Assembly (NCBI GenBank): GCA_965223415.1
Contig: OZ245002.1
Coordinates: 5,024,001 to 5,088,000, forward strand
Source: Myxococcota bacterium
GTDB lineage: Bacteria; Myxococcota_A; UBA9160; UBA6930
DNA length: 64,000 nucleotides
Direction: 5' to 3'
A model generated the notes under the pieces. It searched no databases, was not told where the DNA came from, and was given only the letters and a program-made list of their open reading frames with translations. Below are positions 36,471 through 53,371 of the stretch, piece after piece. Position 1 is the stretch's first letter. Each line of letters begins with the position of its first letter. Made by a program: the position numbers and the translations under genes.

Positions 36471-37085
36471 TCAGCGGCCGCCCGCGCGGGCGGCCTGATC
36501 TCCGGCTGCGCTCCCGCTCGAGAAGACCTGCTTCTCGAGCGCTTCGACCCGGCTGCGCAGCGCTTCGAGCTCGCCGCGGGCTGCCGCCGGGTCGCTGGCG
36601 GACACCTTGGGGAGCCTGCCGAGCCCACCGGTGACGTGGTGGGCCACGCGCTTCACCAGGTTGTCGAGGCGAGGGATGATCTCGCCCAGGGTTCCCGATT
36701 GCACGAACACCGAGCGGGGGTCGCCGGCGTCCTCGCCCTGGACCTGCACGCAGCGGACGTCCAGGCTGGCGCCCTCTCCGAAGCGGGTGAAGGAACCGTA
36801 GAGCACCCAGCGGGCGCCGGCGGCGCGGCCGGCGCCCTGGGCGGCCTCGAGGTCGGTCGTGGCCTGCTCCGGATCGTCGACCTTGATGACCGCGACGCCC
36901 TTCTCCTGGCCCAGCCGGGAGGCGAGCATCTCCGCGAGGCCGGATCGCAGGTAGTCCCGATCCTCCGTGGCATGCACGACGATCGGGAGGATCGCCACGC
37001 GGGCGCGCGAATCGGCGGCGGCAGCGGTGCCCGCCAGCACGAGGAGCAGGACGGCCGCGGCAGCGATGGCGGACTCTCGTTTCAC
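36471..37085 (-). CDS. Exported protein with TolB-N/CsgG-like alpha/beta domain and coiled-coil tail
   Basis: Signal peptide (AAAAD), VAILPI, MLASRL, GARWVLYGS. Confidence 0.65.
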   Translation of the reverse strand: MKRESAIAAAAVLLLVLAGTAAAADSRARVAILPIVVHATEDRDYLRSGLAEMLASRLGQEKGVAVIKVDDPEQATTDLEAAQGAGRAAGARWVLYGSFTRFGEGASLDVRCVQVQGEDAGDPRSVFVQSGTLGEIIPRLDNLVKRVAHHVTGGLGRLPKVSASDPAAARGELEALRSRVEALEKQVFSSGSAAGDQAARAGGR

Positions 37086-37192
37086 GTCGGGCACTCCCCT
37101 GGGCAACGGCCCCTGCGTCGATCCGCACCGACGCGGGGTTCCCCCCGCGGAGACGGAGACGCGAGTCGTTCTATCAGGTGGGGAGGGGAGGG

Positions 37193-38851
37193 TCAACCAG
37201 ACGCGCCGAGAGGCAGCCGGACGCGGAAGCAGGCGCCCTCGCCGGGCCGGCTGGTGACCTCGATCAGACCGTCGTGCTCGGTCACGATCCGGTGGCAGAT
37301 CATCAGCCCGAGGCCCGTGCCGTGGTCCGGCCCCTTGGTGGTGAAGAAGGGATCGAAGATGCGCTCGAGGTCGTCCTCGCCGATGCCCTCTCCCGCATCG
37401 ACCACCTCGATGGTCGCGCCGTCCCCCAGAGCCGGCCCACCGGGCTCGATGCGGATGCGAACGGCCTCGCCCTCGGGGCTGGCGTGGATCGCGTTGAGGG
37501 TGAGGTTGAGGAGCAGCTGGTGGATCTGTTCGCGGGAGGCCATGAGCTTCGGCGAGGCGGGATCCGCGGTGATCTCGAGGCCCACCCGACTGCGCTCGGC
37601 CTCGGGAGCGACCAGCGTCACGACCTCGCTGGCAATGGCCCCGAGATCGCACGCCGAGCGCTTCGCCGCGCCGCTGTCCTCCCGGCCCAGACGGCTCATC
37701 GTCGCCACCAGCCCGCGAATGCGCTCCACCTCCGAGCAGGCGAGGCGGTGGTAGCTGCCCCAGAACTCCTCGTCGGCCTCGGTGCGTTTCGCCGGCGCGA
37801 GGCTCAAGAAGGTGTGGATCGAAGTGAGCGGGTTGTTGATCTCGTGGGCCAGCCCGGCCGCCAGCGTGCCCAGGGTGCCGAGGCGGTCAGCGCGCAGCAC
37901 CTGCTGCCGGCTCGACCGCAGGTCCTCCACCAGGCGGGCGTTCTGCAGCGCGATCGCCGCCTGGTGCGCCACCGCGGCGAGCAGCGTGCAATCGCGCGGC
38001 TCGAAGGGCGCCCCACCGCTGCGGTTGTCGACGGCCAGCGCCCCGAGCAGGCCGGCCTTGCCGACGAGTGGAACCACCAGCACGTCGCCCGCGATCTCAG
38101 TGAGCCAATCGCGCATGGGCGCCGGGTAGTCGAGGCAGTGATCGAGGGTGAGCAGGCGCGGCTCGCCGCGGGCCAGCGCATCCAGCAGCTCCGCCGCGTG
38201 CTCGCGGGTGAGCTGATGGCTCTCGAGGAAGGCCGCGGTGGGCACGTCGCTCGGAACGCGCCGATCGAAGACCAGACTCTCGCGGGTGGGGTCGTAGAGC
38301 AGCAGCGCCGCCCCGTCGTAGTGGAGCGTATCGGTCAGGGACGCCACCAGGAGCTCGGTGAGCTTATCGACCGCAAGCTCGCGCGTGATCGTCGCCGCGA
38401 GCTCTCCCACGGTTCGCAGCTCCCGCACCAGCGCCTCGCGCTCGCGGTCCAGCGCGTAGTGCTCGATCGCCCGCTTCAGGGCAACACGCATGTCCTCTGG
38501 CTGCCACGGCTTGGCGATATAGCGGTAGACGGAGCCGTCGTTGATCGCGTGGCTCAGAGTATCCACCGAGCCGTAGGCGGTGACCAGCATGCGCATGGTC
38601 TCCGGCGCCATCTCGCGCACCCGCGAGAGGAACTCGACGCCGGTCATGCCCGGCATCTTCTGATCCGAGAGCACGACGGCGAAGCGCTCGTTCATCAGCC
38701 GCTCGAGCCCCTCCTCGCCGGACGCCGCCGTCACGATGCGGAACTCGCGGCGGAAGGTCAGCTCGAAGACCCGGAGGTTCTCCGACTCGTCGTCCACGTA
38801 GAGGAGCGGGAAGGCACGTAGATCGACCGGGTGCGGTTGGCTATCCGGCAT
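37193..38851 (-). CDS. Hybrid histidine kinase REC-GAF-HisKA-HATPase
   Basis: YVDDE/SDQKMP/KPW receiver; GAF-like middle; AHEINNPL; NAIHA, DAGEGI, GTGLGL. Confidence 0.92.
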   Translation of the reverse strand: MPDSQPHPVDLRAFPLLYVDDESENLRVFELTFRREFRIVTAASGEEGLERLMNERFAVVLSDQKMPGMTGVEFLSRVREMAPETMRMLVTAYGSVDTLSHAINDGSVYRYIAKPWQPEDMRVALKRAIEHYALDREREALVRELRTVGELAATITRELAVDKLTELLVASLTDTLHYDGAALLLYDPTRESLVFDRRVPSDVPTAAFLESHQLTREHAAELLDALARGEPRLLTLDHCLDYPAPMRDWLTEIAGDVLVVPLVGKAGLLGALAVDNRSGGAPFEPRDCTLLAAVAHQAAIALQNARLVEDLRSSRQQVLRADRLGTLGTLAAGLAHEINNPLTSIHTFLSLAPAKRTEADEEFWGSYHRLACSEVERIRGLVATMSRLGREDSGAAKRSACDLGAIASEVVTLVAPEAERSRVGLEITADPASPKLMASREQIHQLLLNLTLNAIHASPEGEAVRIRIEPGGPALGDGATIEVVDAGEGIGEDDLERIFDPFFTTKGPDHGTGLGLMICHRIVTEHDGLIEVTSRPGEGACFRVRLPLGASG

Positions 38852-41657
38852 CCGCGCCCTCGGCGTCGACCGGGAGCACCACGGTCACGCGGGTGCCCTC
38901 TCCCGGCGTCGAAGCGAGCTCGATCCGGCCACCGTGCTCGCGCACGATGCGATCGGACATGGCCAGGCCGAGCCCGGTGCCCTGCCCCGCCTGCTTCGTG
39001 GTGAAGAACGGCTCGAACAGGCGGGACTGAACGTCCGCTTCGATGCCCGAACCGGTATCCGCCACCCGCACCTCCAGCTCCCCGTCGACGCGCTTTGCCT
39101 GGACGGAGATGGTCCCTTCTTCTCCTTCGAACGCCTCGATGGCGTTCTTGAGCAGGTTGAGGAACACCTGGTTCAGGCCGCCTGGGTCGCCGAAAACCGC
39201 CGGGAGATCCGCCGCGATCTCCACCTCCGTGGCGATGCCCGCCTCGCGCAGCTGATGCCCAAGGAGCTGCAGGGTCGAGCGCAGGCCGGCGCCCACGTCC
39301 ACGATGGCGTGGCCGCTTCGCCCCGGAGCTGCGAAGTCCCGCAGGTCCGCCACGAGCCGCGCCGTCCGGTCGAGGCCTTCGGTGACGATGCCCACCAGCT
39401 CGGCCAGCTCCGAGGCCATGTCCTCGAAGCCCATCTCCCGCTTCTTCCGCTCCAGCTGCAGCAGCTGCACCCGGAGCGTCTGGGGATCGTCCGCATCGAG
39501 CTCGCCGACCCAGGAGACCAGGCCCTGGATATCGTCCGCGTAGGCCCGGAGCGCCGCCAGGGAGTTGCGCGCGAAGTTGAGCGGGTTGTTCACCTCGTGG
39601 GCCACGCCCGCCGAGAGCTCGCCGACGGCCGCCAACCGCTCCGCCTGGACGAGCTGGACCTCCGCCTCCTTCAGCTCCTCGAGGGCCTGGGCGAGCTCCG
39701 CGTTCGACGATTCGAGCGCCGCGTTCTGCTCGCGGAGCTCGAGCTGGAGGGAGCGGATCCGCACCAGCGAGCGCGCCCGGGCCAGGAGCTCGCGGGGGTG
39801 GAAGGGCTTCGTCACGTAGTCGTCCGCTCCGAGCTCCAGCCCCTCGATCTTCATCTCGCGCTCGGCCTTGGAGGTCACCAGCATCACCGGCACCCCGCGC
39901 AGCGCCCCGTCCTGCTTGATCGCGCGACACAGCTCGGTGCCCGACATCTCGGGCATCATTACATCGGTCACGACCAGCTCGGGGGCCTGCTCGCGGACCG
40001 CCTCGAGAGCCTCCAGGCCGTTGCGCGTCGGCCGCACCCGGAACTCGCGACCGAGCAGGAAAGCCAGCAGCCGGCGCATCTCGGCATTGTCCTCGGCGAT
40101 CACGATCTCCGGCGTACCCTCGGCATGCTCCGGAAGCTCGAACACCCACTCGTCGCCGTGCCGGGTCGCCTCCCAGCGGCTCACCGTGTGCTCCACCGCC
40201 GCGAAGCGCCCCTCTCCGGCGTGCTCGAGGTCCATCGAGGTCTCGCTGGCCAGCGCCTCAAAGGACTTGGCTGCGGAGAGAGCGCGATTTCCCCCGGCCT
40301 CGAGCAGTACCTCCTCCTCGGGATCGTCGTCCGCCTCTCCGAGAGGCAGCAGCACGTGCATCTGCGACCCGTGCCCATCGCCCTCGCTCGTCGCCCAGAC
40401 CCGCCCGCCATGCAGCGCGACCAGCTCCTGCACGAGACTGAGCCCGATCCCCGTCCCCTCGTGCTTTCGGGTCGCCGACCCGTCCACCTGGGCAAAGCGA
40501 TCGAACACCCGCGCGAGCTGATGCTCCGGAATGCCGACGCCCGTGTCCTCGACCACGATGTGGACCCCCTCCGCATCGAGGCCCCGCCCGTCGCCGGCGG
40601 CAGCCGGCGCTCCGCGCACCGTGATCCCCCCGGAATCCGTGAACTTGAGCGCGTTCCCGATCAGGTTCACCAGCACCTTCTCGAGCGCATCCGGGTCGAC
40701 ATTCGCCGTGGGCAAGCCGTCGAATCCCTCGGCCCGCAGGTGAAGCCCCTTCCGCTCCGCCATCGGCAAGGCGCCGTCCACGATATCTGCGACCAGCCGC
40801 CTGAGCTCGATTGGCACCCGCCGCACCGACAGCTGCTCACTCTCGATCTTCGCAAGATCCAGCAGGCCATTGATGAGCTTCAGGAGGCGCAGCCCGTTGG
40901 ACTGCATCGTCCGCAACGTCCGGTCGAGCCCGCTGGGAATGTCGCCCATGTCCCCGGATCGCATGGCTTCGATGGGGGCGAGCATGAGGGTGAGCGGCGT
41001 GCGGAGCTCGTGGTGGATGTTGGCGGTGAAGCGGGACTTTGCGCGATCCAGGTCTTCGAGTCGGTCGCGCGCGCATTCGAGTTCGCGCCGCTTCGAGAAG
41101 TCCGAGTAGCGGATCTTCTCAAGGTTCACCGAACTCGCGACAGCGAGTATGAACGCCGAGGACAGAACCAAGCCGTGGAAGACCACCGTCGTGGATCCGG
41201 TCCCGTCGGAGCCCACCGCGACCATCAGGAAGAAGCACAGGCTTGTCGCGCCGCAGACGAGGACGGTCTGCCGGATTGTAACCGGGATGATCACCGGGAA
41301 GGCGCCGAAGAGCAGGACGAGTCCAGAGTAGTAGGGACTTGTGCCCGCGCCCGTGAAGGCGGAGATCGCCACGAGCATCATGCCGATGGATAGCCCCATT
41401 CCGATGCTGGCCACCTCAGGGGCCCTGGATCGGAACGCCCAGTAGAGGCCACCCATCACACCGGCTGTCGCAACACGGATTGGGGCGAAGACGCGCCACA
41501 TCTGGGGCTCGGCGATGGCGTCCAGCGGTATGAACCCCAGCACGATCGCGAGGCCGCAGGGGACGGCGATTCGAAGCGCGGGGGGCATTAACTCCCGGCG
41601 CACGAACTCCCGGTAGTCCGCGAAAGACTCGGCGGTCCTGGGCGGCACGGTCTCCAC
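38841..41657 (-). CDS. Membrane (~6 TM) hybrid kinase with two transmitter modules: TM-HisKA-HATPase-REC-HisKA-HATPase
   Basis: Hydrophobic N-terminus with SPYYSGL; HHELRTPL, NALKFT; AEDN/TDVMMP/KPF; AHEVNNPL, GTGLGL. Confidence 0.92.
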   Translation of the reverse strand: METVPPRTAESFADYREFVRRELMPPALRIAVPCGLAIVLGFIPLDAIAEPQMWRVFAPIRVATAGVMGGLYWAFRSRAPEVASIGMGLSIGMMLVAISAFTGAGTSPYYSGLVLLFGAFPVIIPVTIRQTVLVCGATSLCFFLMVAVGSDGTGSTTVVFHGLVLSSAFILAVASSVNLEKIRYSDFSKRRELECARDRLEDLDRAKSRFTANIHHELRTPLTLMLAPIEAMRSGDMGDIPSGLDRTLRTMQSNGLRLLKLINGLLDLAKIESEQLSVRRVPIELRRLVADIVDGALPMAERKGLHLRAEGFDGLPTANVDPDALEKVLVNLIGNALKFTDSGGITVRGAPAAAGDGRGLDAEGVHIVVEDTGVGIPEHQLARVFDRFAQVDGSATRKHEGTGIGLSLVQELVALHGGRVWATSEGDGHGSQMHVLLPLGEADDDPEEEVLLEAGGNRALSAAKSFEALASETSMDLEHAGEGRFAAVEHTVSRWEATRHGDEWVFELPEHAEGTPEIVIAEDNAEMRRLLAFLLGREFRVRPTRNGLEALEAVREQAPELVVTDVMMPEMSGTELCRAIKQDGALRGVPVMLVTSKAEREMKIEGLELGADDYVTKPFHPRELLARARSLVRIRSLQLELREQNAALESSNAELAQALEELKEAEVQLVQAERLAAVGELSAGVAHEVNNPLNFARNSLAALRAYADDIQGLVSWVGELDADDPQTLRVQLLQLERKKREMGFEDMASELAELVGIVTEGLDRTARLVADLRDFAAPGRSGHAIVDVGAGLRSTLQLLGHQLREAGIATEVEIAADLPAVFGDPGGLNQVFLNLLKNAIEAFEGEEGTISVQAKRVDGELEVRVADTGSGIEADVQSRLFEPFFTTKQAGQGTGLGLAMSDRIVREHGGRIELASTPGEGTRVTVVLPVDAEGADAG

Positions 41658-41696
41658 GGAAGCTGTATCGGCCCCCGTGGGGGGCTCCTTGATGCG

Positions 41697-43877
41697 CTAC
41701 TCCGAGGCCCCTTCCCGTGGCGCTGAAACCACCAATAAGGCCGGCAAGAGGAGGAGATCCGCGAGAAGGCAGACCCCCATGATCGCCGCTGTAACCAAGC
41801 CAAGGTTCCGAACGAGGTTGAAGCCCGAGAGCCCCAGCACTCCAAACCCCACCGCGATGACCACCGTAGTTCCCAACACTGGCGGGAGAGTCCGCCGCAG
41901 AGCGCCGGCGACCGCCTCCGCCGCTGGAAGCGTGCTTCTGTGTCGCCGATACTCCACAACCACGTGAATCGTGTCGTCAATTGCGATTCCAAGGGCAAGG
42001 GTGCCCAAGAGGACGGTGCCCGCGTCGAGAGGGATGTCGAGTAGGCCCATCAGCCCGAATGCGAACACCACTGGCGTCGCGTTCGGAATGAGTGAGACGA
42101 CCGTCATTCGAACGGACCGCAGAAGGATGCCTAGGACGATCCCAACCGCGACGAACGCGAACACCAGGCCGCGCAGCTGGCCCCTCTCGATCTCCCGCTC
42201 AGAACGCGCGTACTCGTGCATGATGCCAGTGACCTGTGCATCGAAGTCCGCCGGGCCGAAATCCTCCCACCACCCCTCCGACGCACGAGCGACCCGAAGG
42301 AGATCGTTAGAACCGTTGTTATCCACACGCAGCAGCAAGTTCGCCTGCCGTCGATCCGCAGTGACGACGTCTCCCATGTAGTCAACCGACTCGAGCAGCA
42401 GCAGGTACTGCTCGATTCCGTTCTCATCGACGGGTAGAGGGTATTGGGAGTCGCCGAGGAACCCACCGTGGAGTTGTCGTAGGGGGTCCGCTAGGGAAAC
42501 TGCCTTGCCCACTTCGGGCAGTTGACCGAGAAAGTGCTGGAGCCCATCTATAGAGCGCAACACGTCCGGATCTGTGACTCGCCGGTCCCCCTCCGAGGAG
42601 ATCACAACGTTCATGGGGCTAATTCCCGAGAGACGGGTCCGAATCTCGCGGTAGTCCTTTCGAGGAGTGCTGTCCTCCTGGAAGTAGAGAATCACGTCGG
42701 TTTCGATGTCGAGCCGCGAGATGCCAACTCCGACTACGAGGAGGATTGCAGCCCAACCGGCCAGGATGGCTACCGGACGCGTCAAGAGCGAGCGAAGGTG
42801 GCCCACGATCGCGTCGCGGGCCCGAACGACGAGGACCGACCGGACCTCGGCCACTGGGAATAGAGCCAGAAGCGCGGGCGCTAGCGAAATCGCAGCTGCG
42901 AGCACGAACAGACATCCCAACGCTCCGAATGCACCGATCCAGCGGATTACATCAATTCGCACCAAGGTCATCGCCACGAAACCGATCGCCGTCGTGACGC
43001 CCGAGACCACGATTGGGGCAACCACTCGCACGAGCTCCACCTCAATCCGACCCGGGGCCCCCTGGGCGGCCGCGATTGCCGAGACCACATGAAGTGAATA
43101 TGCACAGCCCAGCGCGAGCAGCACCGATGGAAGAACAACTGTGCTGATTGTGAGAGGAACCCCCAGCGCACCCATTGTGCCCAGCGTCAGGAGGCTCCCC
43201 ACTGATCCGACGGCAAGAACGACGATTGGTACCCGAGCGCCCCTCAATGGAAGCATGAGTAGAAGGCCGATGATCAAGCCGGTGACCGGGAAGAAGATCG
43301 CCAGCTCACTTCGCATCAAGCGATTGGTCTCAGTGCGGAAGACGGGCCCCCCTGAGATCCAGGCTGAGCCGAGTCGCTTAGATGATTCCCGAACGGCTTC
43401 GACGACGCGTTGATCGTTCTCGGCGCCGATGTCGTCCATTCGAACGACCACGGCGAAGGTCCGTCCATCCTCTGAGACCACTGCCTTGGGAAGGACCCGG
43501 TCTTTCTCGATCTTTGCGACGGCGCCAGCAACCTCTCCATCCGAGGCGCCTGGTTCGATCGCGGGATCCAGCTCGAGTGTTCCGTCAGGCCCCGCGTGGA
43601 CGAGAGGCATGGTGCTGATGCTGTCGACGCGGCGAACACCGGCAACCTCCTCGAGATCTGCCGAGATAGAGGCGATAGTGCGAACCACTTCCGGGTCGAA
43701 GGCGTGCTGCGCCTCGGCCGCAAGCACGACGATCTCGTCGCCACCGAAGGTGTTGGTGGAGGACTCGTAGAACCTCCACGATGGGCTCTCGCGACTCAGC
43801 ACGCTGTCCGTCGAGGTTTCGATGTTCAATCGCGCGAGCCCTGCCAGGGAGGCCACTGCGAGGATGGCCCATACCAA
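41697..43877 (-). CDS. MMPL/RND-family lipid transporter (true start probably upstream of 43877)
   Basis: Two repeats of TM, large loop and 5 TM; GIAIDDTIH; frame stays open back to 43958. Confidence 0.88.
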   Translation of the reverse strand: MVWAILAVASLAGLARLNIETSTDSVLSRESPSWRFYESSTNTFGGDEIVVLAAEAQHAFDPEVVRTIASISADLEEVAGVRRVDSISTMPLVHAGPDGTLELDPAIEPGASDGEVAGAVAKIEKDRVLPKAVVSEDGRTFAVVVRMDDIGAENDQRVVEAVRESSKRLGSAWISGGPVFRTETNRLMRSELAIFFPVTGLIIGLLLMLPLRGARVPIVVLAVGSVGSLLTLGTMGALGVPLTISTVVLPSVLLALGCAYSLHVVSAIAAAQGAPGRIEVELVRVVAPIVVSGVTTAIGFVAMTLVRIDVIRWIGAFGALGCLFVLAAAISLAPALLALFPVAEVRSVLVVRARDAIVGHLRSLLTRPVAILAGWAAILLVVGVGISRLDIETDVILYFQEDSTPRKDYREIRTRLSGISPMNVVISSEGDRRVTDPDVLRSIDGLQHFLGQLPEVGKAVSLADPLRQLHGGFLGDSQYPLPVDENGIEQYLLLLESVDYMGDVVTADRRQANLLLRVDNNGSNDLLRVARASEGWWEDFGPADFDAQVTGIMHEYARSEREIERGQLRGLVFAFVAVGIVLGILLRSVRMTVVSLIPNATPVVFAFGLMGLLDIPLDAGTVLLGTLALGIAIDDTIHVVVEYRRHRSTLPAAEAVAGALRRTLPPVLGTTVVIAVGFGVLGLSGFNLVRNLGLVTAAIMGVCLLADLLLLPALLVVSAPREGASE

Positions 43878-43958
43878 GAGAGCTGTGCGTGGGTGCCGGA
43901 GGGATCCAACCGCCGTTCGCTCAAGCGGCCGGGACGTGAGGTCACGAAGCTGCAGGGG

Positions 43959-46409
43959 CTACGCCCTCGTCGCTGAAGCCACGATTGCCTGCTGCGGCGA
44001 GCCCAGGCAGGGAAAGACCGACTCGACTCGCAGGCCGGCGCTCTCGATCAGCTTTCGGAAAGCGATCTCGCTCCAGAACTGAAACGCGCCGGCTTCCTCC
44101 AGATCCATCAACTTCGCACCGTCGTTGAGGAACGCCCGAGCCGCTTGCATGATCTGCGCGCGGGATGCGCCGGGAAAGAAGGAATCGAACTGGCCATCTT
44201 CGACGCCAGCGAGAGCGCGCGTGTAGATCTGCGAGATGTCCGCATCGGGCCTCATTGTTGAGAGAACCAACCTCCCTTGCGGGCGCAGAACTCGCGCGAT
44301 CTCGGTCAGGACAGACTTCGCATCCGGTACATAGCTGAGCAGGAGAGATGCGAGCACTCGATCGCAGGAACCGCTGGCAAGGGGAAGGACCGAACGCTTG
44401 AGGTCGGCCTGGACGAACTCCACACTCAAGCTCGCATCTCGGCGAATCTGGGTCTTCACGTGTTGGAGGGCACCCATCACGAGGTCGCACTCAACGAGCT
44501 GCAGGGCGGGCTGGGATCCAGCCCGACGCAGGTAGCTCGGAAACGCGCCCGTTCCCGAGCCGAGATCGAGAACGCGATTGCCTGGGGTCAGCTGGAGATC
44601 CGCGACCTGGCGCTGCATAAACTCCTGGTAGTCGTGTGTCGCGTTCAGAAGCGCGATCCCCATACCAGAGGATCTTCCAAGCAAGTAGTCCGCCCAGAAG
44701 TCGGCGACATTCGGCTCGGCCTGCCCGAGGCGAGACCGCTCGGCCGCACTCCGCTTCGCAAGATCCCGAATGCTGGGCGCCCGTCCGCTGATGCGGCGCT
44801 CCAACGCAGCCTGGCTCACCTCTTCAGCGATGAGCTGGAAGACGTCGAGCGCCTCTTGGCTAGAGCGAAGCTGGTGACCCGTAGGCACCTCTAGGAGCTT
44901 GCGGTTGCCAGCACTCCCGCAGGCGAGGACCTCCCGCACGCGATCGAGCTCCATCCACGCGTCGAACCTCCCGTGGAGCCACGTGATGGGCACGAAGATC
45001 TGGGAGAAATCCCGACGCGAATCGGAAAGGAAGGAGAGCCCTTGTTGCGTTGCATCCACCCCCGCATAGTCGATATCGACGGTGACCCCGAGGATCTCCT
45101 GGCGGCCAAACGACAACCCCTTTTCGATGCCGCCCATGTAGTCGACGCCACCAGATATGACGCGCATCATCGACTGAATATCGGCCGTACCTACCACGCA
45201 GATCCACGCATCGACGGTCTCGCCGCGATCCGAAGCCAAATACGCTCTACCTTCGATCGAGGACGCGCTAAACGTGACCAGCGCCAGCTTCTCGCAGCCG
45301 CGTTCACGGCGCAGGAAGTTGGCTGCAGCACGGATGTCCTTGACCCCCTGGGAAAAGGTGAACCGGTCGTGCTCCCGACCTGGCTGCAAGCAATCGGGGT
45401 CCCTGTAGGACTCGCCGCGCTTTCGTACACCGTCGAATCGAAGGATAGAAACGGGCTGGCTCGCCGCCCGAAACGTCGCCAGGAGAGTCCTGGCGAGCGG
45501 CATTAGGGTCTCCTTTGTTCGGCCCCATGCCGGCGGGATCACCACACCGAGGCGTCCCTCCCCCCTCCCCCACTCGTCCGCGATGCCTCGAATGGGCTCG
45601 CGGTCCTCGGTCTCGAACTCCACAAGATGGATCTTTGTGTCACGAGTTCCGAGCCCCGCTCGGCGCAGCAGCTGCTCAGTTGCACTCGCGGTTGCTCCCG
45701 ATGCCACAGCCAACTTCCGCAATAGCCGCTGGCTTGAAGAGCGCTCAACGATCGCGTCCTTTCGATCCACACCGACCGCCGGAGCGTAGGGTACGGGCGA
45801 TGTCTTGAGGTGTATCCGCGACCAGCCGTTCGCATCCCGAGTTACGCCCGCGACCCTGGCGAAGCGGTGGCTGTGGCGGGATGCACTCGTGTCGAACTCG
45901 AGTTCGAAGGAGGCTCCCGATTGCGGGGCACTCGTCGCTTCCGCGCGAATCGCCAACCCCGCTTCCGAGGAGTCAAGGATCTCGCCTCGGAACGCTTTTC
46001 CTTCGCCTCGCAAGACGACGCGTTCCCCGGACAGGTCCCCCGACCGCAGCCGCTCACGCCGCTCGTTCTGAAACACGACATCGGGAACCCGCACGATCAA
46101 CGGCGATTCGGATTCAGGCGACAGCGGATCAGCCGAGAAGAAGTACCGGTTGCCGTTCAGTTCGAAGCGCAGGAAGATCTGCTCCCGTCCGGTCGCGGCG
46201 AAGTTCTCCGTCGCCAGCACCAGCTCTCCGCCCCGGATCTCCTCGATCGTCGCGGACTCGGGGCGTACCGCCCTGTTCATCCCGCGATAGAGGGTCGCTC
46301 GCTCGCTGGCAGCCTGCTCCAACAGGGCGCGAACGCCCGACACATCCCGCATGCCCTCAGGATGAAGCCGAGCAAGATCGTCCACACCGATCAACTGCGA
46401 AACCGCCAC
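43959..46409 (-). CDS. Fusion protein: YcgR-N/PilZ + LuxD-like acyl-thioesterase + class I SAM methyltransferase
   Basis: PilZ RERLR and DSSEAG; hydrolase RFDG...GES, TFSAS, FDAW, TGHQL; methyltransferase VLDLGSGTG. Confidence 0.82.
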   Translation of the reverse strand: MAVSQLIGVDDLARLHPEGMRDVSGVRALLEQAASERATLYRGMNRAVRPESATIEEIRGGELVLATENFAATGREQIFLRFELNGNRYFFSADPLSPESESPLIVRVPDVVFQNERRERLRSGDLSGERVVLRGEGKAFRGEILDSSEAGLAIRAEATSAPQSGASFELEFDTSASRHSHRFARVAGVTRDANGWSRIHLKTSPVPYAPAVGVDRKDAIVERSSSQRLLRKLAVASGATASATEQLLRRAGLGTRDTKIHLVEFETEDREPIRGIADEWGRGEGRLGVVIPPAWGRTKETLMPLARTLLATFRAASQPVSILRFDGVRKRGESYRDPDCLQPGREHDRFTFSQGVKDIRAAANFLRRERGCEKLALVTFSASSIEGRAYLASDRGETVDAWICVVGTADIQSMMRVISGGVDYMGGIEKGLSFGRQEILGVTVDIDYAGVDATQQGLSFLSDSRRDFSQIFVPITWLHGRFDAWMELDRVREVLACGSAGNRKLLEVPTGHQLRSSQEALDVFQLIAEEVSQAALERRISGRAPSIRDLAKRSAAERSRLGQAEPNVADFWADYLLGRSSGMGIALLNATHDYQEFMQRQVADLQLTPGNRVLDLGSGTGAFPSYLRRAGSQPALQLVECDLVMGALQHVKTQIRRDASLSVEFVQADLKRSVLPLASGSCDRVLASLLLSYVPDAKSVLTEIARVLRPQGRLVLSTMRPDADISQIYTRALAGVEDGQFDSFFPGASRAQIMQAARAFLNDGAKLMDLEEAGAFQFWSEIAFRKLIESAGLRVESVFPCLGSPQQAIVASATRA

Positions 46410-46446
46410 GCCGCCGCCTCTTCTCTTGCCGTTCGCCAGCCCCGAG

Positions 46447-47352
46447 TCACGCGAAACGAGGAGTGAGTCCTATAGCTCTCCACAACGGCAGGGTTCTACG
46501 AGACACCATCTGAAGCTGCACGAGGAACGGGAGAATCCGCGACGTGCAGTCCCGGAAGAACTCGCGGCGGTGTACCGAGCGGCGCGAAGAACGCCACAAG
46601 CGCCACGCTTCACTACTGTCGGAGGCTAGGCCGGATCGGACGTAGACCTGCGGTGGGTTCATGGCTTCAAAGACAAGAAGCAGGACGGCAGGTGCGGCCA
46701 GGTCGATTGCTGCTCGTCGAACCGCACCAGAACTCTCATAGGCATCGTGGAGGTTCATTCTGGCATAGTCCATGTGCCGCGCCTCCTCCATGCGATGAAT
46801 CATGCCAACGTCCCGAAGGGTCGGATGCTTGGCGCCGAGCTCGAGAGCGCGGGCAATGAACGTGTCCGTGATGTCCTCAACCGCGAGCATCCCTAGGAAG
46901 TAGAGCGCGTTCCCTTTGGCAACGGCCCACTCCCCTACCCGTTCGACCGCACCATGGAAACCGGCAGGTGGGTACGGACCTACGCCGATCTCGCTCACGA
47001 GCCGAGAAAACATGCGGCTGTGGCGAGCCTCTTCCTCGATGACCTTCAGCCGGTATCGGGTCACGTCCGCAACCGGGTCGGAGTTCCGAACCAAGCGGGC
47101 CAAGGCCTGATTCAGGACGCCCTCGAAGCGGATGAATGACGAGAACATCGCGGCCGTCTCATGGAGTGCGAGCTCGGCCTTCTGGGCCTCGGAGAGGCGA
47201 TCGAACTCGGGCGTCCCAAACAGGCTCAGCGCCTCGTCAGGGAGGAGGGGGGGCGCGCCGCGGAACGGGACGCCCCACTCAACAGCCTCGTCCGGATCGA
47301 TGAAGTTCCTGACCGAGGCGCTCTCGAGCTTCTTGAGCCGACTGACATCCAT
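46447..47352 (-). CDS. AurF-like ferritin-fold diiron oxygenase
   Basis: FE...EEARH and VE...HRMEEARH carboxylate/His ligand sets; LSLFGTPEFDRLSEAQK. Confidence 0.82.
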   Translation of the reverse strand: MDVSRLKKLESASVRNFIDPDEAVEWGVPFRGAPPLLPDEALSLFGTPEFDRLSEAQKAELALHETAAMFSSFIRFEGVLNQALARLVRNSDPVADVTRYRLKVIEEEARHSRMFSRLVSEIGVGPYPPAGFHGAVERVGEWAVAKGNALYFLGMLAVEDITDTFIARALELGAKHPTLRDVGMIHRMEEARHMDYARMNLHDAYESSGAVRRAAIDLAAPAVLLLVFEAMNPPQVYVRSGLASDSSEAWRLWRSSRRSVHRREFFRDCTSRILPFLVQLQMVSRRTLPLWRAIGLTPRFA

Positions 47353-47591
47353 GTGTGGTCGGGAATCCTGGGCTAGGGCGATCCTGAAGAGCTCAAGAGT
47401 AACGGCAAAACGCGGTTTTAGACCAAAGAACTGCCGATTCGTGAGATGGGGCGAATCGACTACAGGCGCTGGCGAGATTAACCCGTTTAGGGTGCCATAC
47501 TACACCCACATATTGCCCCGTGGGAAGCGTAAGCGCGCCCGTGCGAGCGATTCTGGGCACAAGTGGACGCTCCCGGACAGGCCAGAAGGCC

Positions 47592-48596
47592 CTAAGGCGA
47601 GCCCGATATCTGTCTCGCCTTGACCCCCGCTTCACGAAGGAGCCGGACCGAAACGTCTCCGAGCGGATAGGCGATATCGAAAACCACCTCCGCGATCCCC
47701 GAATTGATGATCATCTTGGTGCAGAGCAGACACGGGCAGAAGGTCGAGTAGAGTGTCGCCCCCCGGACCTGGACCCCGTGATACGCGCTCTGGGTAATCG
47801 CGTTCTCCTCGGCGTGGGAGCAGACGCATTCGCCGAGGTCTTTGCCCCCCGGCCCGAAGTCGTTGCAGCGGGGACAGCCACCTTCGTTGCAGTTCGTGGT
47901 GCCGCGAGGAGTCCCGTTGTAGCCGGTGGCGATGATGCGGCGGTCGATCGTGAGGACGGCGGCCACCTTGCGTTTCACGCAGTTGCTACGAGTGGCCACG
48001 ACGCGGGCGATGCTCATAAAGTACTCGTCCCAGTCGGGTCGCCGAAAGAACTGGTTGCCCCGAAGAAGGCTCTGGATCGCGGCGTGAAGCTCAGCGAGAT
48101 CCCCATCGTTTCTGAGGGTGTGGTCGGCAAGGTCGCGGACGCCAAGGAGCTGCTGGCTCGCTGGATCGGGACTGGCCAGCTCAGATCCCTCCAGGCGACG
48201 CAGCTCTTCCAGGGTGTGAGGATCACCGGAGCGGCCCCGCGTTCTCAGTCGTTCGAAACGGATGGATTCATCAGCGTCCACCCAGATAAGGCGGAAATCC
48301 GACGCTAGCTCACGGAGAGCATCCACTTCCGCGGGATGACGGATCGAGTCGACCACGTAGTTGTGATGCGGCTCGAGGTAGGTCATCAGGCGACGCGCTA
48401 GGGCGCCTTCACCCTCCGCTTCGCGCAGAGCCCGCCCCGTTTGGATCATGCGCTCCCGGGTCTCATCCAGCCCCTTGCGAGCAAGTTCCTTGCGGATGAC
48501 GTCGGAGAGTGACCAGGCCGAGAAGCTCCGACCCTCCAGGAAGGACACGACCTCGCCCTTGCCCGCTGCGTAGAGGCCGGACACCCCGATGATCAT
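47592..48596 (-). CDS. P-loop nucleotide-kinase-like domain fused to dCMP deaminase
   Basis: MIIGVSGLYAAGKG, SDVIR, DSIRHPAE; RPDWDEYFM, GYNG, HAEENA, PCLLC (Zn). Confidence 0.9.
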   Translation of the reverse strand: MIIGVSGLYAAGKGEVVSFLEGRSFSAWSLSDVIRKELARKGLDETRERMIQTGRALREAEGEGALARRLMTYLEPHHNYVVDSIRHPAEVDALRELASDFRLIWVDADESIRFERLRTRGRSGDPHTLEELRRLEGSELASPDPASQQLLGVRDLADHTLRNDGDLAELHAAIQSLLRGNQFFRRPDWDEYFMSIARVVATRSNCVKRKVAAVLTIDRRIIATGYNGTPRGTTNCNEGGCPRCNDFGPGGKDLGECVCSHAEENAITQSAYHGVQVRGATLYSTFCPCLLCTKMIINSGIAEVVFDIAYPLGDVSVRLLREAGVKARQISGSP

Positions 48597-48694
48597 AGAA
48601 TTGGCTCCCCTGGTCTGATTCGCGATCGGTGCCTGATCTTTGCACCTACGCGGCGCCAAGCCAACACGGTCGTTTCGCCGAAGGCGGCCCCTTA

Positions 48695-51673
48695 CTAGCC
48701 GGCAACACGCCGCCGAATGTCGGCAACGGAAGTTCCGAGCGCAGCCATTCCGAGGCCAGCTGCGGTCTCTTCAGCCTCCCCAAGCTCCTTCAGCGCCTGG
48801 TCGACCTGTGCCCGCCCGCCTAGCGCCAAGCGAACCCGGGCTGAATCGACCAAGGTGTGCGCCCGCCAGACCGGGCATTGCGCCTGGCTTTCCGCTTCAG
48901 CCGCCGACTCCAGCCTGGCAATCGCAGCTTCGAGGTCACCCTCAGCCGCCAGCAGTTTCCCAACGATTCGCTCAACGGTTCCCCACGTCATGACCCCGTA
49001 CCCCGCCATCGGGCGCTGGGACGAGAACGGAGCCAGTGCTTCGCGAAAGCGCGGTGTGTCTTCGGTGACCGAGAACGCAAGGCACACTTCTGCCAGGACA
49101 GTCAGCGTCAGGAGCCAGACGTTGTCGAGCGACAGAAAGGAGATTCCTCCGGCGAGCCCGCGGTAGTCGTTGCGAGCAAGCTGGTCCATCCCCGCTTGCT
49201 CCGCGTACCGGCACCTCACAGCCCTCCACACGACGAAGCCTGGGAATTGATCAACGATTTCTGTGATCGAGGGGACGGCTTCGTTGAAGCGACCCTGGTG
49301 GTACGCGGTTACAACGAACATCGCGCCACTACTGTGAATGAGGTTCGCGTCTCCATAGGGCCCACCAACGCGTGCCATTTCCGCCGAGTGGCGCTCGACA
49401 GCTCCCCAGTCGCCCTCATCGAGCGCAATGCTCGCCCGGTAGAGGACTGGATACCATCGGCTCTCGGGAGTCCCCGGCCTCTTGACGACTGCCTCGAGAC
49501 GCGAGATCTCTCTCTCCCGCTCTACCCGCCTACCAAGCTCTGCGAGAGTAGACGCACGAAAGATCCGCGCGACGATCTCCACCTGACGCTCTGAGGCGTC
49601 GGCGGCCGCGGCGGCCAGTCGTGTGGCAGCGTTTAGGCGCTCGACCACGTCACCCGGCTGCCAGAGGGCCGCGATTCGAAAGGCCTCCACGAAGAGCTTC
49701 GAGCTTCGCTCTCCTGAGGCCGCGGCGGCCCGCGACGCATCTTGAAGCAAGCGCCGCCGCTCCTCGGATGAGCCCGGTTCCCAGTACAGCGCCATGGCGA
49801 GCCGGGCCAGTAGGCGTGCGCGTTCCTCCTTCGCGGATAGAGGCACCTGCGCGAGCGCACGGCGGGTGACCGACAACGCCACCTCATCGACTCGTCCCGC
49901 CTCGAGCGACGTAACGCCGGGAGCCACTGTCAAGGCGGCCTGGCATGCAACCCCCCAATTGCCGCTCTGCTCAGCGATGTCCATGGCCCTGAGCACGGTC
50001 CGCCTCGCGTCCCCTCGATTTCCCGCAGACATCTGTGCGGCTGCAAGGTTGCCCAGCGTGGCGGCTTGCAGCTCGGCCCCTATCGAGTGTTCGCGCATCA
50101 GGGCGAGAGCACGCTGACAGTGCGCGACAGCTTCTGAGAATGCACCGCGCGCGAAGGCCTCGAGTCCGGCCTCGGCGGAGTACCTCATCGCCGGCTCGGG
50201 GCCGCAGGCTGGAATGGCCTCTGAAAAGTGATGTGCAAGCGCGGAAGCGATCTCGGATCGGTCGGATCGTTCCAAGGCCGATGCGACGGCAGAGTGGTGC
50301 TGGACCCGATGGCGCTGCTCGATCGCGGAATAGATCGCATCCCTCACGAGGAGATGCGCGAAGCTCGTGATCCGCCCATGCGGCCCCGGTGATCGGAGGA
50401 GGTCAGCATCGACCGCTGGTTCAAGGTCTCGAGACAAGCTTGCCAGATCGCACCCTAGGACTTCGGCCAGCAGATCGAGATCGACCTCCTGCCCGAGCAC
50501 GGCAGCAACATCCAGGGCGCGCCTCGACTGCGGGGGTAGGCGATCGACGCGATCGATCGCAGCGCCCAGCGCGTTCGACGGCAGGTTGGTTGTATCTTGT
50601 GAGATCGGCCCAGCCAGAAGCTGCGAAAGAAAGAGCGGATTGCCCCCCGAGAGCCGAAACAGCCTCTCGACGTGGTCTCGTGCAGTTCCAACGCCGATCT
50701 GAGTCGCGAACTCCCGCGTCGAGTCGATATCGAGGGGCCCTAGATCGAGTACCGCACAACGGCTCTCGAGGCTCCTCAGAGGCGGAACCAGGTCCGCCGT
50801 CCACTCCGTCTCTGCCCCTCGATAGGCGGCGAGCATTCGAAGCGCACAGGGGCGCATCTCGAAGCACACGAACATCGCCTGCCGAAACGAAGCGCCATCG
50901 GAGCGATGGAGATCGTCGATGACAAGGACCGGCGAGAGTCGATCAGCGGCTTCCCTCCAGAGCTCCGCTGTCTCGTCCAGCGCGGCGAAGTGCGTCGCCG
51001 CGGCCAATCCAGCTCCATCGGAGGCGGACCGGCCCGGACGAGCTAGCCAACCATCGGCCTTCTCGACCAAGGGCGTTTCGCCGGAACTCGAGGCGAAATC
51101 GCGGAGCTCGCGCGCAAGCTGAATCCACGGCCAGAGCGGAGGCGCCCCCGGAGTCTCGGCACAGCGGCCGACGAAGATCGGGGAACCTGATGCGCGGGCT
51201 CGCCTCGCGAACTCGGACCAGAGGCGCGTCTTTCCCACGCCCGGCTCTCCGCGAAGGAGAACCAGCCGAGTCTGCTCGCCCGGTGCGTCCAGCAGCTGCG
51301 CCTCGAGCTGCGCAAGCTCTGCGGACCGGCCGATGAGGGGAGGCCCTGCTTCATTCGGGCCCGAGACGATTTCGACGTCTGTGGCGAAGCGGATCCCTCT
51401 CCCTCGAACTGTTTCGATGAGCCGTGAGTTCTTGGCGTCATCACCGAGTACACGCCGCGCCGAATAGATCGCCTGAGAGACGACGTGGTCCGAGACGTGT
51501 ACCCCTTTCCAAACCTCCGCGAGCAGCTCAGACCGAGTGACGATCCGACCCCGAGACCGGGCTAGGTAGAGAACTACGTCGAGGACTCGTCGCTCGACGG
51601 GAACTAGCTTGGATTCGCGGCGAAGCTGGCCAGCGAAGTCGTCGATCTCGAAATCAAGGAAGCGATACAGCAT
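48695..51673 (-). CDS. OmpR/CadC-type wHTH + STAND-like ATPase + helical-repeat transcriptional regulator
   Basis: wHTH ending IETVRGRGIRF; LIGR..EL; GEPGVGKT; VIDDLH; GGNPLF; FAHLLVRD; TPR-like C-terminus. Confidence 0.88.
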   Translation of the reverse strand: MLYRFLDFEIDDFAGQLRRESKLVPVERRVLDVVLYLARSRGRIVTRSELLAEVWKGVHVSDHVVSQAIYSARRVLGDDAKNSRLIETVRGRGIRFATDVEIVSGPNEAGPPLIGRSAELAQLEAQLLDAPGEQTRLVLLRGEPGVGKTRLWSEFARRARASGSPIFVGRCAETPGAPPLWPWIQLARELRDFASSSGETPLVEKADGWLARPGRSASDGAGLAAATHFAALDETAELWREAADRLSPVLVIDDLHRSDGASFRQAMFVCFEMRPCALRMLAAYRGAETEWTADLVPPLRSLESRCAVLDLGPLDIDSTREFATQIGVGTARDHVERLFRLSGGNPLFLSQLLAGPISQDTTNLPSNALGAAIDRVDRLPPQSRRALDVAAVLGQEVDLDLLAEVLGCDLASLSRDLEPAVDADLLRSPGPHGRITSFAHLLVRDAIYSAIEQRHRVQHHSAVASALERSDRSEIASALAHHFSEAIPACGPEPAMRYSAEAGLEAFARGAFSEAVAHCQRALALMREHSIGAELQAATLGNLAAAQMSAGNRGDARRTVLRAMDIAEQSGNWGVACQAALTVAPGVTSLEAGRVDEVALSVTRRALAQVPLSAKEERARLLARLAMALYWEPGSSEERRRLLQDASRAAAASGERSSKLFVEAFRIAALWQPGDVVERLNAATRLAAAAADASERQVEIVARIFRASTLAELGRRVEREREISRLEAVVKRPGTPESRWYPVLYRASIALDEGDWGAVERHSAEMARVGGPYGDANLIHSSGAMFVVTAYHQGRFNEAVPSITEIVDQFPGFVVWRAVRCRYAEQAGMDQLARNDYRGLAGGISFLSLDNVWLLTLTVLAEVCLAFSVTEDTPRFREALAPFSSQRPMAGYGVMTWGTVERIVGKLLAAEGDLEAAIARLESAAEAESQAQCPVWRAHTLVDSARVRLALGGRAQVDQALKELGEAEETAAGLGMAALGTSVADIRRRVAG

Positions 51674-51787
51674 GGATGAGCCGGCAGAGAGAGTGCAGCA
51701 TCGGCCAATCGCGAGGAAACCAATGCAGGCCTCAATCTAACGACTCGATGCCGAGGCGCGGCTGGACGGTTTCGGCGGGGGTGTGCC

Positions 51788-52309
51788 TCAGAAGTCCACG
51801 AGGATGCAGAGGCCGCTGCTCGGCCCCAAGGAGCGGCCCAGGCGATCGCGGGGGTCGACGGGGTAGCCGGTGCCGGCCTGACCGCGGAATTTCGCGGGCA
51901 GCTCGAGGATGGCGATCACGGGGCTGCCGCCGGCGCAGTTCTCGAGCTGGCCCAAGGTGAGGCCGGACGGCTCGGCGGGGCCATAGGCGAGGACCGGGGC
52001 GGGTGCCTGGCGAACGGGATAGGCGCCCAGAACTCGTGGCCGCGGTTCGTCGGCGGGCAGCACCACGCGGGCGGGTACAGCTCGCCCCTCCGCGTCGAGG
52101 CCGAGCGCGATACGAAGGGGTCCGTCCGCCTGCTCCGCGGCGAGCCAGGGGTCGCCGTAGGCGGGGTCCATGCGCGGGGTGATCAGGACGGCCGCGGCGG
52201 CTGCTGCGAAGCACGCACCCACCACCAGGGCGTGTCGGAGGGGGATTCGACCCACCGGGACGAGCCCGCAGCTGGGATGGGAACGGCGGTGCTGGGCATT
52301 GGCGTCCAT
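51788..52309 (-). CDS. Hypothetical membrane-anchored or exported protein
   Basis: ATG start, GC-rich third positions, one hydrophobic segment; no recognised family. Confidence 0.5.
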   Translation of the reverse strand: MDANAQHRRSHPSCGLVPVGRIPLRHALVVGACFAAAAAAVLITPRMDPAYGDPWLAAEQADGPLRIALGLDAEGRAVPARVVLPADEPRPRVLGAYPVRQAPAPVLAYGPAEPSGLTLGQLENCAGGSPVIAILELPAKFRGQAGTGYPVDPRDRLGRSLGPSSGLCILVDF

Positions 52310-52441
52310 CGCGTGGAACGTGCCAGACGACCCGGAGCGGAAACCTCAGGATTCGCTAAAGGATCCTCCCCTCGGGGACAGCCAGGCGCCAACGCTCGTC
52401 CGCCTGGTTCGCTGCGTCCCCATCTGTCAGGTTCCGCCGCC

Positions 52442-53371
52442 ATGCACATCCTCGTCACAGGTGCCGCAGGCCTCGTCGGCCGCCAGCTGCTGCCTCGCCT
52501 CGAAAGGGAGGGCCACGACGCAATGGGCTGCGACGTCGCCGGCTCCGGCTGCGAGCACGAAGTGGACGTGGCCAACCCGGTGGCTTTCGGAGCCCTGGTC
52601 GACGCGCTGCGGCCCGAGGCGATCGTGCATCTTGCGGCGATCTCGGCCACCCGGACTCCGGAGGACGATCCCGCCCAGGTCTTCCGCGTCAACTTCGGCG
52701 GCGTGCAGTCGGTCCTCGCTGCGGTGCGAGAGAGGGTTCCGGCGGCGCGCCTCTTGCTGGTGAGCTCGGGGCTGATCTACGGATGCGACCTCGCGGAAGG
52801 CGAGGCCTTCGACGAGACGGCGCCGTTTCGCCCGCGCGGGGCCTACGGGTGGAGCAAGGCGGCGGGGGATCGGCTGGCTTCGCTTCACGCGGAGCAGCAC
52901 GGGCTCGACGTCGTGCGTGTCCGGCCCTTCAACCACACGGGGCCGGGTCGCCGAGACGACTTCGTCGAGGCCAGGCTGGCGAGGCAGATCGCCGCCGTCG
53001 AGCTGGGCATCCAGCCGCCCTTCGTCGACGCCCTCAACGTCGAGGGTACGCGCGATTTCCTCGCGGTGGAGGACGTGATCGACGCCTACGCCAAGCTGCT
53101 CGCCCCGTCGGTGCCAGCCGGCACCTACAACATCGCGAGTGGCCAGGGCGTTCGCATTCGCGAGGTCTTCGATCGTCTGCTCGCCGGGAGCACCGCGGAG
53201 GCGGAGCTGCGGGTGGCCCCGGAGCAGCAGGACCCTTCTGACCGCAGCGTTGGCAACGCGCAGCGGCTGCGCGATGCGACCGGCTGGGCGCCTCACCGCG
53301 ACCTGGACGAAACGCTGGGCCGCCTGCTCGAAAGCTGGCGCCGCACGCTGAGAGACGGGGCCGTCGCCTAG
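52442..53371 (+). CDS. NAD-dependent epimerase/dehydratase (Rmd-like GDP-keto-deoxysugar reductase)
   Basis: ILVTGAAGLVG, HLAA, YGWSK, RPFNHTGPG, RDF. Confidence 0.88.
   Translation: MHILVTGAAGLVGRQLLPRLEREGHDAMGCDVAGSGCEHEVDVANPVAFGALVDALRPEAIVHLAAISATRTPEDDPAQVFRVNFGGVQSVLAAVRERVPAARLLLVSSGLIYGCDLAEGEAFDETAPFRPRGAYGWSKAAGDRLASLHAEQHGLDVVRVRPFNHTGPGRRDDFVEARLARQIAAVELGIQPPFVDALNVEGTRDFLAVEDVIDAYAKLLAPSVPAGTYNIASGQGVRIREVFDRLLAGSTAEAELRVAPEQQDPSDRSVGNAQRLRDATGWAPHRDLDETLGRLLESWRRTLRDGAVA

Follow-up and report, generated by a model that had tools for sequence, protein, structure and literature searches.

A PilZ, LuxD-like hydrolase and methyltransferase fusion as a candidate lipid signal synthase that diverges together with its neighbouring PhcS-type sensor

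The stretch of Myxococcota DNA considered here, 64,000 nucleotides long and hereafter called the window (assembly GCA_965223415.1, contig OZ245002.1, positions 5,024,001 to 5,088,000), carries a gene (43959..46409, minus strand) for an 816-residue protein made of three parts, i.e., a YcgR-like PilZ module of the kind that binds cyclic di-GMP (c-di-GMP), a LuxD-like alpha/beta hydrolase, and a class I S-adenosylmethionine (SAM) methyltransferase. This fusion belongs to a conserved family, in which the near-invariance of the motifs is not due to chance, and among relatives it diverges together with the membrane sensor of a nearby histidine kinase, in a pherotype-like pattern that breaks at the junction between sensor and kinase. 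Because the fusion stands beside, and co-varies with, a sensor kinase related to PhcS, its product is likely to be a signal of the fatty-acid methyl ester kind. From its sequence and gene context, we regard it as probably a new class of autoinducer synthase, which would combine acyl release with methylation under c-di-GMP feedback in a Phc/Rpf-like circuit.

Divergence of the sensor together with the fusion

The fusion lies in a cassette of five genes on one strand, encoding in order an AurF-like oxygenase, the fusion, a transporter of the MMPL family and two histidine kinases, HK1 and HK2, in which successive genes lie 37, 81 and 39 nt apart, except that HK1 and HK2 overlap by 11 nt. The candidate receptor, HK1 (38841..41657, minus strand), is a hybrid kinase with the domain order sensor-HisKA-HATPase-REC-HisKA-HATPase in domain scans, and both its histidines and its REC aspartate are conserved. 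Its PhcS-type (MASE8-like) membrane sensor (41058..41657, minus strand), identified by profile and alignment, is hypervariable. Congener DNA can be followed along the window, matching it at 75-76%, as far as 41,054-41,092, where the sensor/HisKA junction lies and the match ends; the junction is reached in three of the five congeners, in one of them 82 nt before the end of its contig, and the other two break earlier. The apparent absence of the fusion from three congeners was not counted as loss, since their contigs stop within HK1 or extend just 82 nt beyond the sensor boundary.

In the congeners G201 and G017, identity to the window is 76-79% over the kinase core, against 30-33% over the sensor, 42-43% in the MMPL protein, and 29-34%, 53-57% and 37-40% in the PilZ, hydrolase and methyltransferase parts of the fusion, respectively. 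The transporter and a winged-helix regulator are variable among congeners too, and the tailoring slot, namely the position next to the fusion occupied here by the AurF-like gene, holds an AurF-like gene, a radical SAM gene or nothing in three of them. A gene for an AAA-kinase-like/dCMP deaminase fusion, found by domain scan within the low-GC stretch described next (47592-48596), is 75-82% identical in congeners (78-82% in G201 and G017), and the genes on its two sides are both hypervariable. From 41.0 to 51.7 kb the GC content is 0.636, compared with 0.710 for the genome, and that of third codon positions (GC3) is 0.71-0.76, compared with 0.87-0.94 in five flanking genes and 0.77 in the sixth, which is MoxR-like.

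Trees of the sensor and the fusion were compared over 51 loci (52 minus one duplicate). On the fusion tree the sensor alignment loses 83 log-likelihood units (lnL), compared with 718 on the tree of its own kinase core; as a control, part a of the kinase core loses 157 lnL on the tree of part b and 521 on the fusion tree. Close pairs tell the same story: the 17 disjoint pairs with a kinase-core identity of at least 0.62 are bimodal, nine having a sensor identity of at least 0.70 and a fusion identity of at least 0.63, and eight having both at or below 0.47, with no mixed pair and a correlation (r) of 0.98. In the pherotype cassettes agr and comQXP, the hypervariable block spans the signal-making gene plus the receptor's sensor half and breaks within the kinase gene. 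The layout of the hypervariable block is the same here, although the signal predicted for this cassette is a small lipid molecule, and theirs is a peptide.

Architecture of the fusion and its family

The open reading frame of the fusion has no internal stops, and AlphaFold2 gives a single confident model (predicted local distance difference test, pLDDT, 91; predicted template-modelling score, pTM, 0.91). With a threshold of E<=0.001, a homologue search returned 183 proteins, of which the 120 best (alignment A1, including the protein itself and a few partial sequences) are mostly full-length and 38-50% identical to it. By a hydrolase profile search, the genome of origin has a single copy, and 72 of the 201 genomes of its class carry the fusion, nearly always once. 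The 78 loci taken from species genomes come from records titled mostly as Myxococcota or Deltaproteobacteria metagenome-assembled genomes; in addition, a public contig identical to the window over 37000-53000 may be the source sample. A preliminary description of the window, made from the letters alone, had proposed this three-part architecture; all three of its domain calls have been borne out, and the motifs cited in it lie at, or within 2 bases of, the places it gave them.

The N-terminal part (residues 1-212; 45774..46409, minus strand) is a putative YcgR-like PilZN+PilZ module, with the motifs RxxxR (RERLR, R118-R122; 46044-46058) and DxSxxG (DSSEAG, D146-G151; 45957-45974) on the same strand. 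Described earlier as intact, both c-di-GMP-binding motifs prove to be near-invariant among homologues: each of the 117 rows of A1 that cover these positions has R118, R122, D/N146 and G151, and S148 stands in 107. Once excised, the domain scores 24.6 bits against PF07238 (cut-off 22.5), a family matched by 47 of 60 members at E<=0.1, and the top match of the N-terminus among PDB profiles is YcgR (5Y6F), albeit weak (E 0.044, positions 11-163). This region is all-beta in the model; the fold searches with the whole model listed no PilZ chain, their lists being filled by the other two domains. The fusion has both motifs, and may have the two-barrel layout, of receptors of the YcgR/MrkH type, but these act on a motor or on DNA, whereas its PilZ module is joined to two enzymes.

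The hydrolase (residues 257-545; 44775..45641, minus strand) was assigned by Foldseek, VIA-align, profile comparison and the ESM Atlas, and its predicted catalytic triad consists of Ser381 (45267-45269), Asp483 (44961-44963) and His512 (44874-44876), each on the minus strand and present in 120/120 rows of A1. Searches with the single hydrolase sequence of the PDB, Pfam, NCBIfam and plasmids gave no matches, so that profiles and folds were needed. With the family profile, LuxD (1THT) is matched at E 1.4e-5 and the next entry at 0.028; Foldseek likewise ranks 1THT first (E 2.9e-13), and VIA-align superposes it with Z 27.9 and a root-mean-square deviation of 2.9 over 277 residues, the runner-up reaching Z 24.9 among the Foldseek top 1000 and Z 24.5 among 48,161 representatives. 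In the ESM Atlas the first match is PF02273, tied at 0.97 with general hydrolases. In the profile alignment, Ser381, Asp483 and His512 fall on Ser114, Asp211 and His241 of LuxD, the latter two being the remaining members of its triad. Ser114 itself is described as the acylated residue, which forms an acyl-Ser ester (PMC6279958).

The proposal that the middle domain tracks LuxD therefore stands as regards fold, triad register and best match, but not as regards membership: the domain is called LuxD-like, rather than LuxD, because it is only 15% identical and the protein of the window has no match to PF02273 or to the NCBIfam LuxD model above the curated cut-offs. Some long forms of the family, described below, do exceed the Pfam PF02273 cut-off of 20.3 bits, and the best of them scores 33 against the NCBIfam LuxD cut-off of 420. 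The non-GxSxG elbow is common to both proteins; on the other hand, the hydrolase was seen only in fused form and has no linked LuxC- or LuxE-like genes. A search for free-standing hydrolases (158-517 residues) gave 33 matches, mostly partial, and no clear stand-alone form; the candidates P0264 and P0265 lie on long contigs and lack a Pfam match. As to the earlier statement that the window holds no luxA, luxB, luxC or luxE, LuxC- and LuxE-like genes are indeed absent from it, while luxA and luxB were not searched for. LuxE-/LuxC-like genes over the Pfam cut-off do occur elsewhere on contig C1 of the same genome (2469642-2471867, minus strand, and 2049891-2051878, plus strand), and one such pair forms a single open frame of 896 residues, unlinked to the fusion.

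The C-terminal methyltransferase (residues 565-816; 43962..44717, minus strand), also called in the preliminary description, is confirmed by its match to PF08241 (E 2.7e-18) and by motif conservation. It has the motif I pattern DxGxGxG of class I enzymes (DLGSGTG, 44547-44567, minus strand) and an acidic residue, Asp642, after strand 2; D615, G617, G619 and D642 are invariant in 120/120 rows of A1. The domain falls in no named subfamily, as its top NCBIfam matches are mixed (DVU1556-type, BioC, ArsM and MenG, with the fatty-acid O-methyltransferase Mtf2 in seventh place) and all far below cut-off.

Among open-access full texts, no paper describing the PilZ, LuxD and methyltransferase architecture was found, nor any on fatty-acid methyl ester quorum sensing with a thioesterase, a methyltransferase and PilZ. 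The sole open-access match for PhcB together with PilZ and c-di-GMP concerns 2',3'-cGMP, and nothing relevant to phcB or phcS in Myxococcota appeared among the open-access matches listed.

Relation to the Phc and Rpf systems

The sensor found beside the fusion in the window is present in 58 of the 59 short-family loci with at least 3.5 kb downstream. The sensor profile, A5, matches a kinase of Paraburkholderia along its membrane domain from end to end (74.6 bits, E 8e-21; hhalign 98%), as opposed to 12 bits for the best match outside the family in the genome of origin. Members of the 90% cluster of this kinase are annotated as PhcS, and other clusters of its operon as PhcQ and as [quoted passage not shown], a label that we take to denote PhcB. 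A receptor with a PhcS-type membrane sensor, as judged via the PhcS-annotated Paraburkholderia protein, lies beside the predicted synthase. The operon, located on a conjugative plasmid of Paraburkholderia graminis (L103:4406-10836), is phcBSRQ-like and consists of a methyltransferase, the kinase and two regulators, with a cyclopropane synthase upstream; the gene at the PhcR position encodes a receiver of 134 residues only. The methyltransferase has an arginine at position 22, as counted on the sequence, which is described as a named PhcB site (PMC6989110), and PhcB is described as making the methyl ester of 3-hydroxypalmitic or 3-hydroxymyristic acid (3-OH PAME/MAME), which PhcS senses (PMC6989110, PMC9102662, PMC13220807). 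A PilZ-like N-terminus in this PhcB-type protein was considered and is not supported.

Relatives that have the sensor without the fusion are informative in this respect. There are 17 such genomes, of which 14 were retrieved, the other three having the sensor at a contig start, and in seven of the 14 a PhcB-type methyltransferase occupies the slot of the fusion; the remaining loci comprise one fusion cut by a contig end, four that end before the slot, and two with other contexts. Four of the replacements are of 326-334 residues and stand beside a desaturase, and the cluster of this short form carries the PhcB annotation, whereas three are of 486-529 residues and have a PilZ-type N-terminus. Both types of synthase, along with two sensors, occur in each of the genomes G070 and G137. 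Given this slot replacement and a similarity limited to the Rossmann core, the same receptor family has either of two methyltransferases beside it, which are not orthologous to each other. The earlier suggestion of a fatty-acid methyl ester synthase thus gains support from context, i.e., from PhcB-type alternation in the slot and the PhcS-type sensor, the product itself and the allosteric control being predicted. The preliminary description had overlooked the signalling cassette. The three longer replacements (L092:7318-8853, L098:7179-8636 and L101:3911-5497) carry RxxxR and DxSxxG, with a Pfam match in two, and may give a further class of synthase, unrelated to the first, an input for c-di-GMP.

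The cassette resembles the Phc system of Ralstonia, Cupriavidus and Paraburkholderia (phcBSRQ; 3-OH PAME/MAME) in that a methyltransferase synthase adjoins a kinase with a homologous membrane sensor, the domain order of HK1 being PhcS+PhcR-like, and in that PhcB-type genes stand in for the fusion in some relatives. Unlike PhcB, of which it is not an ortholog, the fusion brings its own LuxD-like hydrolase together with a PilZ module that is intact; unlike Phc, the cassette has a tailoring slot of variable content and an MMPL candidate exporter. Counterparts of PhcA and PhcQ were not identified, although no search was aimed at them. With a PhcB-type profile (motifs KPxGY/FxGD and DWxxIYR), nothing was found in the genome of origin.

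A long subfamily of about 900-1200 residues provides a test of sensor linkage that is more independent than co-occurrence within the class. These forms have extra PilZ domains and sometimes REC, and keep the methyltransferase and the triad, the latter being S33/C1, D34 and H34 in 34 sequences. Over 62 metagenome loci, some of them near-duplicates, the sensor is found in 31 and, counted by hand, in 26 of the 28 whose downstream sequence reaches 4 kb or more. Of the 30 loci examined, 26 have an AMP-binding ligase after the fusion and 19 a B12 radical SAM enzyme. An HD-GYP output accompanies 24 of 26 receptors: 20 end in HD/GxGYP, four have a second kinase and then a REC-HD-GYP gene, and two are cut by the contig. 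In Rpf, the diffusible signal factor (DSF) system, RpfB adjoins RpfF. The logic of that system (thioesterase-dehydratase RpfF, ligase RpfB, hybrid kinase RpfC and REC-HD-GYP protein RpfG) resembles the long subfamily, for which acyl release, an acyl-CoA-ligase-like gene, a hybrid kinase, HD-GYP output and c-di-GMP are the predicted parallels. It differs in that Rpf has a crotonase where the fusion has an alpha/beta hydrolase and a methyltransferase, and in that the c-di-GMP module here sits on the synthase itself. Thioesterase activity is described for RpfF (PMC13660987).

Proposed pathway, alternatives and neighbouring genes

From the architecture, motif conservation, LuxD fold, gene context, sensor homology, slot replacement and co-divergence, all of them observed, we infer the chemical steps that follow, the binding of c-di-GMP and the sign of its effect, and the steps of export and signalling. 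The LuxD-like domain would release an acyl chain from acyl-ACP, via an acyl-Ser381 intermediate, as the free acid, which the methyltransferase would convert with SAM to a diffusible methyl ester. Synthesis would run at a rate governed by c-di-GMP bound to the PilZ module, the adjacent tailoring enzyme, here AurF-like, would modify the acyl chain, and the MMPL protein would export the ester. The PhcS-type sensor of HK1 would then read the signal and relay it through HK1 and HK2, and in the long subfamily the HD-GYP domain of the receptor would feed back on c-di-GMP. In this scheme the fusion acts like PhcB, and its long form like RpfF with RpfB, RpfC and RpfG, while being a member of neither family. 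Such a signal would likely let these uncultured bacteria recognise their own kind, probably under the control of c-di-GMP.

Several observations weigh against this proposal. For the sensor, the fusion tree is rejected by the AU (approximately unbiased) test (p 0.003), although not by the SH (Shimodaira-Hasegawa) test (p 0.2), and the sensor and fusion trees share only 22 of 48 splits; moreover, sensor, MMPL gene and fusion are contiguous, so that one recombined block could yield the co-variation without any matching to a ligand. The sensor co-occurs with the fusion in 68 of 72 genomes (hand count; the four exceptions are assemblies of 290-830 contigs), but this figure is inflated and partly circular because A5 was built from kinases beside the fusion. 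The names PhcB and PhcS are automatic annotations, the comparison running via Paraburkholderia proteins rather than those of Ralstonia, and orthology of the fused methyltransferase to PhcB is rejected, only the Rossmann core aligning (138 columns, 19% identity). Feruloyl esterases and monoglyceride lipases score only about 3 Z units below LuxD. In the long subfamily, two loci (L155 and L156) have room downstream but no sensor, and the fused HD-GYP domains carry AHQE, not the usual HHE, in 16 of 20 cases; the cassette of the window has no HD-GYP at all.

The fusion might instead be the signal enzyme of the cassette with another chemistry, such as an esterase that removes methyl esters in a BioC/BioH-like make-and-break arrangement switched by c-di-GMP, an acyltransferase, or an enzyme that methylates O, N or C outside a carboxyl group. 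We hold this to be unlikely: the esterases ranked immediately under LuxD, the mixed, sub-cut-off methyltransferase matches and the acyl-Ser ester formed by LuxD would suit it, but the PhcB-type replacements carry no hydrolase domain, so that ester removal is not required in the slot, and the acyl-CoA-ligase-like gene of the long family fits free-acid release. Slightly less likely still is a role in making or remodelling a structural or surface lipid, or a metabolite, under c-di-GMP, with a kinase that senses something else and a co-variation due to hitchhiking on a recombined block. MMPL/RND and LolA-like neighbours, the low GC3 across 41.7-51.7 kb, the variation of the transporter and the regulator, and the recombination breaks expected in the conserved HisKA region all agree with such a role; against it, the sensor family pairs with PhcB-type synthases in relatives and in Paraburkholderia, and with the long-family fusion in an unrelated context that lacks MMPL. 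Finally, the fusion could be a LuxD counterpart supplying the LuxC/LuxE-like fatty-acid reductases of the genome, encoded at 2.05 and 2.47 Mb on C1. This is very improbable, as those genes lie more than 2.5 Mb away, the neighbour scans of fusion loci name no LuxC or LuxE family, and the fused methyltransferase and the receptor would be left unexplained.

If the reading as an autoinducer synthase is right, then fatty-acid methyl ester quorum sensing, which is described for the Ralstonia group (PMC6989110, PMC9102662, PMC13220807), would gain a second class of synthase, one that is self-contained in having its own acyl-release domain and that takes c-di-GMP as an input; in the parts of the Phc literature consulted, the acyl-chain source of PhcB is not stated. 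The family would also extend PhcS-type receptors to a large uncultured clade, give a candidate ligand class to the MASE8-like sensor, which the open-access literature names in a preprint that gives no ligand, and provide synthase-sensor pairs, matched or mismatched by nature, for testing in Escherichia coli, and perhaps a way of turning acyl-ACP into methyl esters with a single gene. More tentatively, we envisage a widespread, undescribed family of lipid quorum sensing, diversified into pherotypes, in uncultured Myxococcota-like and other bacteria. Swappable tailoring by di-iron oxygenases, P450s, desaturases, cyclopropane synthases and radical SAM enzymes may here create strain-specific methyl-ester dialects read by co-inherited PhcS-type sensors, with one polypeptide that would release the acyl chain, methylate it and itself be a c-di-GMP receptor, and with a feedback loop closed by the receptor through HD-GYP or GGDEF output.

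Regarding the other genes of the cassette, the AurF-like di-iron oxygenase (46447..47352, minus strand; PF11583, E 7e-46, two EARH motifs) fills the tailoring slot 37 nt upstream of the fusion. The content of the slot differs among loci, and it holds interchangeable fatty-acid tailoring genes: a scan of 43 proteins beside fusion loci found three P450s, three desaturases, two cyclopropane synthases and one further AurF-like protein. Radical SAM enzymes, two ketoacyl synthases, a thiolase and LolA-like proteins were also found, together with seemingly unrelated neighbours (a transposase, fumarate reductase subunits and a transpeptidase). Domain scans further identify the MMPL/RND (HAE3-like) transporter (41697..43877, minus strand; 49/78 loci), a candidate exporter of the lipid product, HK2 (37193..38851, minus strand), a REC-GAF-HisKA-HATPase protein and candidate downstream relay, and the winged-helix/AAA/TPR regulator (48695..51673, minus strand), which is near the cassette in 24 of 79 loci. 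Two open reading frames lack an NCBIfam match, one at 51788-52309 and the other at 36471-37166, which is conserved downstream of HK2 in 26 of 79 loci. A promoter and terminator scan remained at chance level, and the small-share runs X5 and X6 gave short pieces only.

Some minor observations concern the sensors and the synthases outside the window. The genome of origin has 21 GGDEF matches, one of them fused to a second sensor of the HK1 family; this combination with an intact GGDEF domain occurs at C1:3015688-3016938 (minus strand) of this genome (G000) and at L102:9628-10812 in G011, and is a candidate signal-responsive diguanylate cyclase. Kinases of the same sensor family are also encoded upstream of the fusion, at L016:4043-6637 (a second copy), L065:5559-8261 and L049:484-3285. 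In the two long-form loci that have no receptor nearby, a phosphopantetheinyl transferase follows the fusion (L155:11513-12253 and L156:7597-8343). PhcB-type methyltransferases are common on Rhizobium plasmids (matches H42-H70, which include Enterobacter plasmids; L043 and L074), and on one Enterobacter plasmid such a methyltransferase lies inside a type I polyketide synthase gene.

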